Below, piece after piece: positions 60,545-63,061 of a stretch of 64,000 nucleotides of DNA (positions are counted from its first letter, which is position 1; every line of letters begins with the position of its first letter). Under the pieces are notes generated by a model. It was not told the origin of the DNA and ran no database searches. It saw only the letters and a list, made by a program, of their open reading frames with translations. The translations under genes and the position numbers were made by a program. This DNA comes from a virus (Duplodnaviria; Caudoviricetes): the IMG/VR virus record IMGVR_UViG_3300029288_000111, positions 1 through 64,000 of that record, one strand, 5' to 3'.

Positions 60545-60751
60545 CTACGCGGAGGCCTGAGATGTTCCCGCTCGGGCCTCCCGGCGTGCGGCAGCGATCT
60601 CCCGCTCGATCTCCTCGGGCGAGAGCCCGGAACGCCGTGCGTTCGCCCAGGCGCGTTCGACGATCTCCTGGAGGCCCTCCCACGCCTGTTCACGCTCCCG
60701 TGGGAGAGAGTTTGATATCACAATCTGTGATTTCAAAACATCCTCTTTCAT
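60545..60751 (-). CDS. Small helical protein resembling antitoxin C-termini
   Basis: GLSPEEIEREIAAARRE; AGGGG RBS. Confidence 0.5.
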   Translation of the reverse strand: MKEDVLKSQIVISNSLPREREQAWEGLQEIVERAWANARRSGLSPEEIEREIAAARREARAGTSQASA

Positions 60752-62181
60752 GTTCGCCCCTCGCGTTCACCGGCTCCCGACGAACACTGTACTCATACCC
60801 GTCCACCCGCTGCACGACGCGGATCTCCTTCTGGCTCCTCGGGCTGTAACTGCGCTTCGTGCCATCGGGATAGGAGACGATCCCCTTGCCCGCCCGTCGC
60901 CTCCAACCTGGAAACCCGCCCACACCGGCCCCGGAACAGCACCATATCGCCGGTGCCGAAGTGGAAGCGCCGCTTCCACCGCCTGGCCGTCATCGGCAGG
61001 CCGTCCTTCCCCAGACGGGGAAAACCGGGAGCGCGATACCGCCGCAGTCCGCGGTCTCCATGCCCCTTGGCAGTCGCGAAGAGAACCCACACCTCCCGCG
61101 CCCCTCGCTTGACCGACAGGAGCGGCGCCTCGCTCCAGGCATACGCCGAGCGACCGACACAAAGAGCATCCAGCGAATGTGTCTTCGCCAAGCGGAACTG
61201 ATCCCGAACGAAGTGCGTCATCCCGCCCGAGCCGGTTTCCAGGGGCAAGCCCATGCGCCGGATCCGGGCACAGAGATCGGTCCGCGCCGAGTTTACCGCC
61301 GCCGCGTCTTTATACGACTTACCCACCTGCGCTTGCACATCGGGGTGCCCAAACTCTACCGCCGTCCGGTTCTTCTTGGCCTGGTTGCACGGTCCGCAGG
61401 CGATGGTGAGATTGCTCACCCGATTGGTTCCGTCCCTGCCTTTCGGAATGATGTGCTCCACCTGAAGCGGCCCCGGAAACTTCTTGTTGCAGTAGGAGCA
61501 GCGGTGGTGGAACTTGTAGAGAAGATACTGCTTCAACTCGTAGCCGGCGAGGGTGCCGCGTTGATACTCCATCCCCTTGATGTCCGGCTTCTCCATCTTC
61601 TGGGTGTCGAAGCGCACCGCCTCGACCGATATTCCCGTCACCGGCGCCCACCGGCACAACCGCTCAATCCACGAAACCTGCGAAAGGACCCGCGCCTTCA
61701 CCGCCGGAGACAGCCAGCGCCCGCGCGTGTCCTCGCCGTTGTGCCGCACGCCCTTGTGGCGCCAGCACCAGTCCTTGCCACTTCTGGCGTTCTGCCCGCA
61801 GATGTGGCACTTCACGCGCGGGCGGTTCCTGAAGCGCCGGGGGCGGTAGCGGCGATACTTGTTGCGGCGCATCCGGCGCCAGTTCCGACGCTGCTGCATC
61901 TTCTTGTGAATGCCCCGGCGGTGCTCAATCTCCATCAGCGCCAGGGCGCGCGGTCGGTTCCCGCCTTCTCGGACGACGGCCAGTCCAGTTGCCTTCGATC
62001 CCGGATCCAGCTTCACCCGCACCGACTGCAACTCGCTCTCTTCCACCGTTCGGTCCGCCAACCGGATCACGAAGGGGGAGCGGCGGTGAACACGCGCCCG
62101 GCCCCTCTCCAGGAGGAGTCGCGCCCGCTTCTCCGTGCAGGGCATCAGCGGATTCTGATGTTTGTCCAGAACGTAGACCAT
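60690..62181 (-). CDS. iscB: IscB RNA-guided endonuclease, frameshifted by a 4-bp duplication at 60888-60895 (as read, ORF 60793-62181)
   Basis: PLMP domain, RuvC-I LDPGS, Arg-rich bridge helix, RuvC-II VEAVRFD, HNH (CSYC..EHIIP..NL..C..CN), RuvC-III THSLDA; typical VQRVDGYEY tail in the shifted frame. Confidence 0.93.
60711..60737. repeat. Palindrome TTTGATATCACA-ATC-TGTGATTTCAAA
   Basis: 12-bp arms with 1 mismatch; same core as 63037-63061. Confidence 0.8.
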
Positions 62182-62184
62182 CTT

Positions 62185-62539
62185 CTTGTCCTTACGGACC
62201 TTGTGACGGTGGCGGTTGGCATCCCGCCACGCTCACCACGCCCATGTCAACCGGCAGTCCGGCATTGAGCCATGTCGCGTTCCGTTTCGTGGCCTCTCAA
62301 CCATTGTCTACAAGTACCTTTCGGTACGAACGCGACTTCGAGAGGGTCAGGCTGGTGAAGCACCGACCGTCGGTTTTAGACATCCGGCCAACGTAGCTCA
62401 CGGCCCGAAGGCCGCTTCAGCGGTTGTTACTCCCGCCTCCTCATCTGCCTTGCCATCGGCATCGGTGGCTCGGGCTAGTTCGCAGTTGACAGACTTTTCA
62501 GCCCGCGCGCTTCAACTCGGAATCCGCATCGCGCAAGGA
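62185..62539 (-). ncRNA. omegaRNA/HEARO-like scaffold with 5' anti-repeat (tracrRNA-like)
   Basis: ACTAGCCCGAG, GCTACGTT, TGCTTCACCAGCC, GACATGGGCGTGGTGA and CGTCACAAGGTCCGTAAGGAC motifs upstream of iscB; 62508-62526 complementary to the repeat. Confidence 0.82.
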
Positions 62540-62912
62540 GTCGCAACGGACTCCGAATAGAAGCGGAGAGTGCGACGTTCTGGCGGGATGCACGCCCCGA
62601 AGATCCTCCGTCGCAACGGACTCCGAATAGAAGCGGAGAGTGCGACGTTTCACGCCGCCGCTCCGATCCTGACCGGGCGAGTCGCAACGGACTCCGAATA
62701 GAAGCGGAGAGTGCGACCCTCGTTTCATGCCGATACCGGCAGGTGCCGGCTGTCGCAACGGACTCCGAATAGAAGCGGAGAGTGCGACTCGGCGCTGTGA
62801 TCGTGCCGCCCCTCCTGCCGGCGTCGCAACGGACTCCGAATAGAATCGGAGAGTGCGACTCCCAACCGTTCTGGCGTCGCAACGGACTCCGAATCGGAAC
62901 GAAGAGTGCGAC
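62540..62912 (-). CRISPR. CRISPR array, 6 x 37-bp repeats GTCGCACTCTCCGCTTCTATTCGGAGTCCGTTGCGAC (minus strand)
   Basis: Repeats start at 62540, 62610, 62681, 62752 (identical), 62823 (1 change) and 62876 (degenerate); spacers 33, 34, 34, 34 and 16 nt. Confidence 0.96.
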
Positions 62913-62944: not shown

Positions 62945-62974
62945 AGATAACGCTCGATGGCCGCGAGCGTTCCC
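62945..62974 (-). promoter_or_regulatory. ECF-type promoter reading into array, scaffold and iscB
   Basis: GGGAAC-gctcgcggccatcgag(16)-CGTTATC. Confidence 0.8.
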
Positions 62975-62992
62975 ACTTTTTTTCAAGGCGTT

Positions 62993-63061
62993 TTGAGATG
63001 CCGATTTGGCACCTCAAAGGTGACAATCTGTTACCTTTGAGGTCACAATCTGTGACCTCAA
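62993..63061. repeat. Three overlapping palindromes with 3-nt centres
   Basis: 62993-63017, 63011-63043 and the perfect TTGAGGTCACA-ATC-TGTGACCTCAA at 63037-63061. Confidence 0.85.

Follow-up and report, generated by a model that had tools for sequence, protein, structure and literature searches.

In the phage record analysed here, the guide-adaptor three-way junction that forms the first element of an omegaRNA appears, from RNA folding, to be shared out between a CRISPR array and the scaffold RNA that precedes iscB. Both the closing stem and hairpin 1 would take their 5′ strand from the repeat and their 3′ strand from the scaffold (in hairpin 1 this 3′ strand is an anti-repeat), and hairpin 2 would lie wholly in the scaffold. 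The window is a stretch of 64,000 nt (positions 1 to 64,000) of the IMG/VR virus contig IMGVR_UViG_3300029288_000111, whose whole record is 101 kb long. The array is located 355 nt upstream of iscB, with each spacer 5′ of its repeat on the iscB strand, and the layout is as follows.

62540..62912, minus strand: CRISPR array of six 37-nt repeats
62540..62576, minus strand: terminal repeat; UCGCA (nt 2-6) is the putative 5′ strand of the closing stem and nt 12-30 the 5′ strand of hairpin 1
62527..62539, minus strand: 13-nt linker UCCUUGCGCGAUG, closing the repeat:anti-repeat helix into a cis hairpin
62508..62526, minus strand: 19-nt anti-repeat CGGAUUCCGAGUUGAAGCG, 16/19 to the reverse complement of the repeat
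62489..62506, minus strand: hairpin 2, GCGGGCU-GAAA-AGUCUGU, 7 bp with a GAAA loop
62480..62484, minus strand: closing-stem 3′ strand UGCGA, complementary to repeat nt 2-6
62473..62479, minus strand: ACUAGCC, aligned to the CcAGcc pseudoknot strand of HEARO/omegaRNA and marking the end of the adaptor
62185..62490, minus strand: omegaRNA scaffold, from a weak full-length HEARO alignment and a nucleotide alignment with the two closest IscB loci
60793..62181, minus strand: iscB ORF of 462 aa with RRXRR and HNH domains, its conserved tail in another frame

The four repeats nearest the scaffold are identical, and the degenerate ones stand at the array end distant from it, the fifth with one change and the sixth with four. 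The spacers measure 33, 34, 34, 34 and 16 nt; the short distal one (62860-62875) starts with GCCAGAAC, which is also the last 8 nt of the terminal spacer (62577-62609), and 16 nt is the usual length of an IscB guide. On the minus strand, a single C at 62507 lies between the anti-repeat and hairpin 2 (62506..62489), which contains three G-U pairs, CAAC separates this hairpin from UGCGA, and about 290 nt of scaffold follow ACUAGCC before the iscB ORF begins. We found one array and one anti-repeat in the entire 101-kb record. Just past the array there is a terminator-like hairpin with a T-run on the plus strand (62949-62971); read on the minus strand, this palindrome precedes the first repeat by about 35 nt. 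A simple promoter scan yielded no minus-strand sigma-70-like site upstream of or within the array.

The reverse complement of the repeat is CGGACUCCGAAUAGAAGCG, and the anti-repeat 19-mer corresponds to repeat nt 12-30, with 16 of 19 positions identical. Opposite the repeat, the three differences are a G-U, a U-G and a U-U, leaving 18 of the 19 positions paired, two of them by G-U. A preliminary description of this DNA had reported the 13-nt linker and the 16/19 match at 62526..62508 with two of the three differences being wobbles, and our re-reading of the sequence agrees. When we compared the match with 300 dinucleotide shuffles of the 355-nt scaffold, none reached 16/19 (best ungapped 19-mer, mean 12.3, maximum 15). 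The repeat-scaffold duplex had an energy of -43.4 kcal/mol, against -33.9 ± 3.0 kcal/mol for shuffles, and energies as low were obtained in 9 of 1000 shuffles and in 2 of 338 further segments of 355 nt taken from the window. The duplex energy by itself is thus only moderately unusual in GC-rich DNA, and it is the identity and the position of the match that stand out. In a 392-nt RNA, the partition function gave the repeat:anti-repeat helix pairing probabilities of 0.92-1.0 except at the U-U, with similar values in a 761-nt RNA made of array and scaffold. The helix is also present in the minimum free energy fold, and the whole RNA has a z-score of -4.8. The preliminary description had proposed cofolding of repeat and scaffold as a check; with a 62-nt segment of the scaffold side the helix formed, and the gain (-17.8 kcal/mol) was lower than with any of 500 shuffled repeats.

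The place of this helix is best understood by comparison with canonical omegaRNA. The Rfam HEARO (RF02033) consensus starts with a three-way junction in which a closing stem of 8 bp leads into two hairpins, 1 and 2, the second with a gaAA loop, and the CcAGcc pseudoknot strand comes directly after it. The window scaffold aligned to this model from 62490 to 62226, model positions 1-211 all being aligned, with a score of 25.1 bits (E 0.021) that lies far below the gathering score of 83. No 5′ guide-adaptor three-way junction was found in cis by the HEARO model, in which the junction was squeezed to 9 nt. When the repeat was cofolded with 62539..62478, the result was the UCGCA:UGCGA closing stem, the long repeat:anti-repeat helix and the 7-bp GAAA hairpin, followed by ACUAGCC. 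This topology is the same as that of the HEARO consensus and of the adaptor of L005, a canonical relative scoring 130.3 bits, and the junction formed only with the repeat as its 5′ strand. The anti-repeat had earlier been proposed to replace the first omegaRNA stem; it does lie at the place of that stem, but the cofold topology indicates a stem that is split and not simply replaced.

The two smaller helices, also present in the preliminary description, depend more on what is folded. The GCGGGCU-GAAA-AGUCUGU hairpin is where it had been placed, and UGCGA can pair with UCGCA just before ACUAGCC; both were predicted when the repeat and the 62-nt segment were folded alone, and in the ensemble of the whole RNA their probabilities were 0.1 for hairpin 2 and 0.02 for UCGCA:UGCGA. 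Comparison with other loci supports hairpin 2 and the closing stem as likely parts of the structure. The loop of hairpin 2 is GAAA in L092, 3 nt long in L014, GAGA (of the GNRA type) in L005 and gaAA in HEARO.

Two of these loci are themselves CRISPR-linked. Among the seven loci of top protein matches that we inspected, only L014 had an array, and among 80 viral IscB loci screened, only L092 had one upstream on the iscB strand. L014 (GCA_009712145.1, VFSW01194104.1; 113-622) is a 2.1-kb contig of an NCBI metagenome assembly with two 37-nt repeats and the gene for P0007, which is 48% identical to the window IscB; as the contig is only 2.1 kb, its array may be longer than two repeats. L092 (IMGVR_UViG_3300035208_002778; 1929-2500) is viral, with an IscB 38% identical to that of the window, three 36-nt repeats and HEARO score of 73.4 bits (77.3 bits in L014, both below gathering). 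The repeats of L014 and L092 are unrelated in sequence to the window repeat. When each was cofolded with the approximately 62 nt before CCAGCC, a closing stem, a long helix and a 7-bp hairpin were again obtained. The closing stems covary, being UCGCA:UGCGA in the window, GUUCC:GGAAC in L014 and GUUACA:UGUAAC in L092, and all end directly before (CU)AGCC. Cognate duplexes had energies of -43.4 and -38.3 kcal/mol, as against -14.7 to -25.1 kcal/mol for non-cognate ones, while the AU-rich L092 discriminates poorly. Shuffled repeats were as low in 0 of 500 cases for the window, 0 of 500 for L014 and 19 of 500 for L092. Because L014 and L092, with unrelated repeats, give the same junction in the same place, these data support an array that is tied to IscB by structure. 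The structural tie had been claimed in the preliminary description on the window alone, and the matching anti-repeats and closing strands of two further loci now add to it.

The same observations bear on the reading in which the complementarity is a coincidence, the array being a cas-less phage mini-array that serves host Cas proteins and happens to stand beside an ordinary IscB element. The 37-nt repeat is palindromic, folds on itself (-13.8 kcal/mol) and has a 3′ end (..GUUGCGAC) like those of class 1 repeats, and class 1 CRISPR repeats do self-fold. Chance duplexes of similar energy, moreover, arise in 1% of shuffles. An ordinary omegaRNA, however, has a complete adaptor junction of its own, which is absent in cis here; the anti-repeat, hairpin 2 and closing strand lie exactly at the place of that junction, the orientation is the required one (spacer 5′ of repeat on the iscB strand), and L014 and L092 show the same fit with unrelated repeats. 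We consider a coincidence very improbable. The complementarity, its position and the recurrence of the design in two independent loci are all directly visible in the DNA.

Downstream of the adaptor, the window scaffold body aligns at the nucleotide level with the regions upstream of the two closest iscB genes (L002 and L013). RNAalifold applied to the window, L002 and L013, only three sequences, gave 81 pairs, 24 of them with compensatory changes. The scaffold downstream is probably a conserved structured RNA, lying directly upstream of iscB on the same strand. No second repeat was present in L002 and L013 within the 78 nt upstream of the adaptor. We tested the window repeat against the adaptor 5′ strand of L002 and L013, as it would be if the repeat derived from omegaRNA, and the alignment was ambiguous. 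The L002 and L013 contigs (1-80 in each) are from separate samples and have homologous first bases. Ahead of the adaptor both possess a conserved 5′ hairpin, UGGUCCAGC...GCUGGAUCA, perhaps the end of an element or an additional domain of the omegaRNA.

Wider searches gave less. Neither the protein nor the repeat pattern retrieved close relatives in IMG/VR. A scan for a 20-nt scaffold motif through viral, metagenome and genome collections found six loci, five of which lack any resemblance to omegaRNA and were set aside as chance matches; the sixth, L010, offers only 238 nt of upstream DNA to inspect. In the 80-locus screen, the arrays of L027 and L030 were discarded, being downstream of iscB and probably unrelated. 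That of L027 (1770-2231) has eight repeats of about 28 nt with a spacing of 59-60 nt, on the iscB strand and a few hundred nt downstream of iscB.

How the split adaptor might work follows from its layout. We consider it quite probable that transcription continues from the array into the scaffold and that the last repeat snaps back on the anti-repeat, giving a natural single guide whose guide portion would be the 3′ end of the last spacer. Transcription through the array would put the last repeat 13 nt from the anti-repeat; by folding back on it, the repeat would produce a one-piece guide RNA in which the three-way junction, the first omegaRNA element, is assembled from its two shares. The guide, ending in ..GCAUCCCGCCAGAAC, would then lie directly 5′ of the adaptor, as the guide does in any omegaRNA. 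We infer in addition that the two parts are transcribed as one RNA, which is loaded into IscB and directs DNA cleavage. The folding models favour this arrangement in cis, as the preliminary description had anticipated: the helix has the high pairing probabilities given above in both the 392-nt and the 761-nt models, and the cis repeat holds the anti-repeat with a mean probability of 0.89, as against 0.00-0.01 for the other repeats. The other four spacers could possibly be used as well, and would need either processing and pairing with a free scaffold or an alternative folding.

This last point leads to a different main mode, in which the transcript is cut, for instance by RNase III in the duplex, and scaffolds pair in trans with repeats, so that all five spacers are used like the crRNA:tracrRNA of Cas9. 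It is difficult to see why an array would hold several spacers if just one ever served, and the four identical repeats are equally good partners of the anti-repeat (-43.4 kcal/mol for each, with -36.7 and -38.3 kcal/mol for the two distal ones). Some members of this family are probably split: the anti-repeat lies about 115 nt downstream of the last repeat in L014, and about 110-120 nt from it in L014 and L092 taken together. L092 also has a promoter-like site (2143-2170) between array and scaffold and two anti-repeat-like segments, and resembles a tracrRNA-like form in which the two parts are separate. CRISPR-linked IscB loci thus seem to include fused as well as split forms. In the window, however, the 13-nt linker lets the cis repeat take the anti-repeat in the model, and the promoter scan gave no minus-strand promoter-like site that would yield a scaffold without the terminal repeat. 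The authors of DelIscB, for their part, leave open whether processing gives two RNAs (PMC12660989). As the main mode in the window, a dual RNA is possible, if somewhat doubtful, and we retain the single guide folded in cis as the preferred reading.

The protein expected to use this guide is clearly recognizable. The window ORF matches PF14239 (RRXRR, 5.8e-56) and PF01844 (HNH, 6.5e-11) and has 5301 homologues at E<=1e-20, several of them named 'RNA-guided endonuclease IscB', with a best identity of 49% in the collections searched. From its sequence it is best classified as an IscB, an OMEGA effector and thus one of the small nucleases from whose kind Cas9 descends. Its frame is broken at about 60880-60900, the tail (..VVQRVDGYEY..) continuing in another frame to about 60690; alignment with homologues stops at about residue 415, and the ORF as it stands does not include an intact C-terminal TAM-interacting domain. 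The frame break is either a real mutation or an assembly error. Because iscB is broken near its 3′ end, present activity is uncertain. The surrounding phage record carries a large terminase, a minor-head-protein-like region and a tail-fibre-like protein. A match to Rfam ceN40, a nematode snoRNA, at 61909-62022 (minus strand; 26 bits, below gathering) falls inside the iscB coding region and was rejected as spurious.

These features raise the question of whether the structure is real but decaying, with an IscB inactivated by the break in the tail that reads the target-adjacent motif and an array that guides nothing now. The conserved iscB tail in another frame speaks for such a relic, as do the degenerate distal repeats with one spacer of only 16 nt, the absence of Cas1, Cas2 and Y1 transposase matches from the 101-kb record, and the lack of protospacers. 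The spacers had no targets in phage records (best E 0.4), matched at most 12 nt of their own contig, and had no exact 23-24-mer in IMG/VR. Missing protospacer matches are nevertheless usual for metagenomic phages. There is, moreover, a single frame break in a gene of 462 codons that is otherwise open, four repeats are perfect and the scaffold pairs have been kept relative to those of its relatives, which suggests recent function or an assembly error. A relic is in our opinion rather unlikely.

CRISPR-associated IscB was described by Altae-Tran et al. (2021, Science 374:57), as cited in PMC12660989 and PMC11610941. By the adjacency and orientation of its array as well as by its repeat and anti-repeat, the window cassette appears to belong to this class. 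It shares with CRISPR-associated IscB and DelIscB an IscB of about 460 aa, an array and ncRNA upstream on the same strand, an ncRNA in which spacer, repeat and anti-repeat hairpin stand ahead of the omegaRNA body, and the lack of adaptation genes. In DelIscB (Zhang et al. 2025), the ncRNA consists of spacer, repeat and anti-repeat, the one-RNA arrangement works experimentally, and cleavage was kept when the DR/anti-repeat hairpin was trimmed to a GAAA loop (PMC12660989). The repeat/anti-repeat wiring of an IscB guide RNA is thus already published for another IscB, and the window is a further example. The window differs in that its IscB is on a phage record, has a broken frame and is at most 49% identical to proteins in the searched collections (DelIscB being compared by its published description), and in that its closest relatives, L002 and L013, show no array in the 78 nt upstream of the adaptor.

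With the canonical omegaRNA/HEARO of IS200/IS605 IscB, the window has in common the (CU)AGCC strand, GCUACGUU, the GGUGCUUCACCAGCC hairpin and a 3′ pseudoknot partner, as well as a guide placed directly 5′ of the adaptor. Unlike the canonical form, its 5′ junction is not in one piece, as the CRISPR repeat holds the 5′ strands; hairpin 1 is also longer, a helix of about 19 bp, and the Rfam score is 25 bits where gathering is 83. For Kato et al., the repeat:anti-repeat duplex of Cas9 is the equivalent of the guide-adaptor hairpin of IscB (PMC9640706). Like the crRNA:tracrRNA of type II Cas9, including the compact Cas9d (PMC9755519), the window has a repeat:anti-repeat duplex with wobbles and a mismatch after the guide. 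In contrast, its anti-repeat follows the last repeat after 13 nt within one transcript, where the Cas9 tracrRNA is a separate molecule, and its effector of 462 aa has no REC lobe and is accompanied by neither cas1, cas2 nor csn2. The window thus has none of the REC lobe, separate tracrRNA and cas1-cas2 module of type II CRISPR-Cas9.

In a quick IQ-TREE run, the window IscB grouped with P0002 and P0005, which lack arrays (SH-aLRT 99), away from P0007 and the IscB of L092. P0002 and P0005 are the two closest proteins and have the unusual scaffold of the window, yet show no array. This placement in the tree is a hint that the adaptor split arose more than once. A 26-bp palindrome (core TCACAATCTGTGA) occurs in the 101-kb record only at 63036-63061 and 60711-60736, where it brackets the array-omegaRNA-iscB cassette exactly; the downstream copy lies inside the 3′ end of the frame-corrected iscB, and a degenerate neighbour is found at 62992-63025. 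The two copies could represent end hairpins like those of IS200/IS605, or else a pair of operators. That the array arose independently in the window IscB lineage, with the 2.35-kb palindrome-bracketed cassette perhaps being a mobile unit that carries its array, is a speculative suggestion that we hold to be quite unlikely as matters stand. If it were true, division of the same omegaRNA adaptor hairpin into repeat and anti-repeat would have occurred repeatedly, and the fused form of the window and the split form of L092 would be living intermediates between omegaRNA and crRNA:tracrRNA.

The published picture of CRISPR-associated IscB is unchanged by the window. What it adds is a natural and well-delimited case of a one-piece transposon guide RNA opened into repeat and anti-repeat, as is believed to have happened on the way to the dual RNA of Cas9. 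The case comes from a phage, and its IscB lineage is remote from all characterised ones, with identities of no more than 49%. Comparing the three loci also defines the part of the scaffold that has been ceded to the array, namely one strand, the 5′ one, of both closing stem and hairpin 1, and this definition is useful for guide RNA prediction in other CRISPR-linked IscBs.
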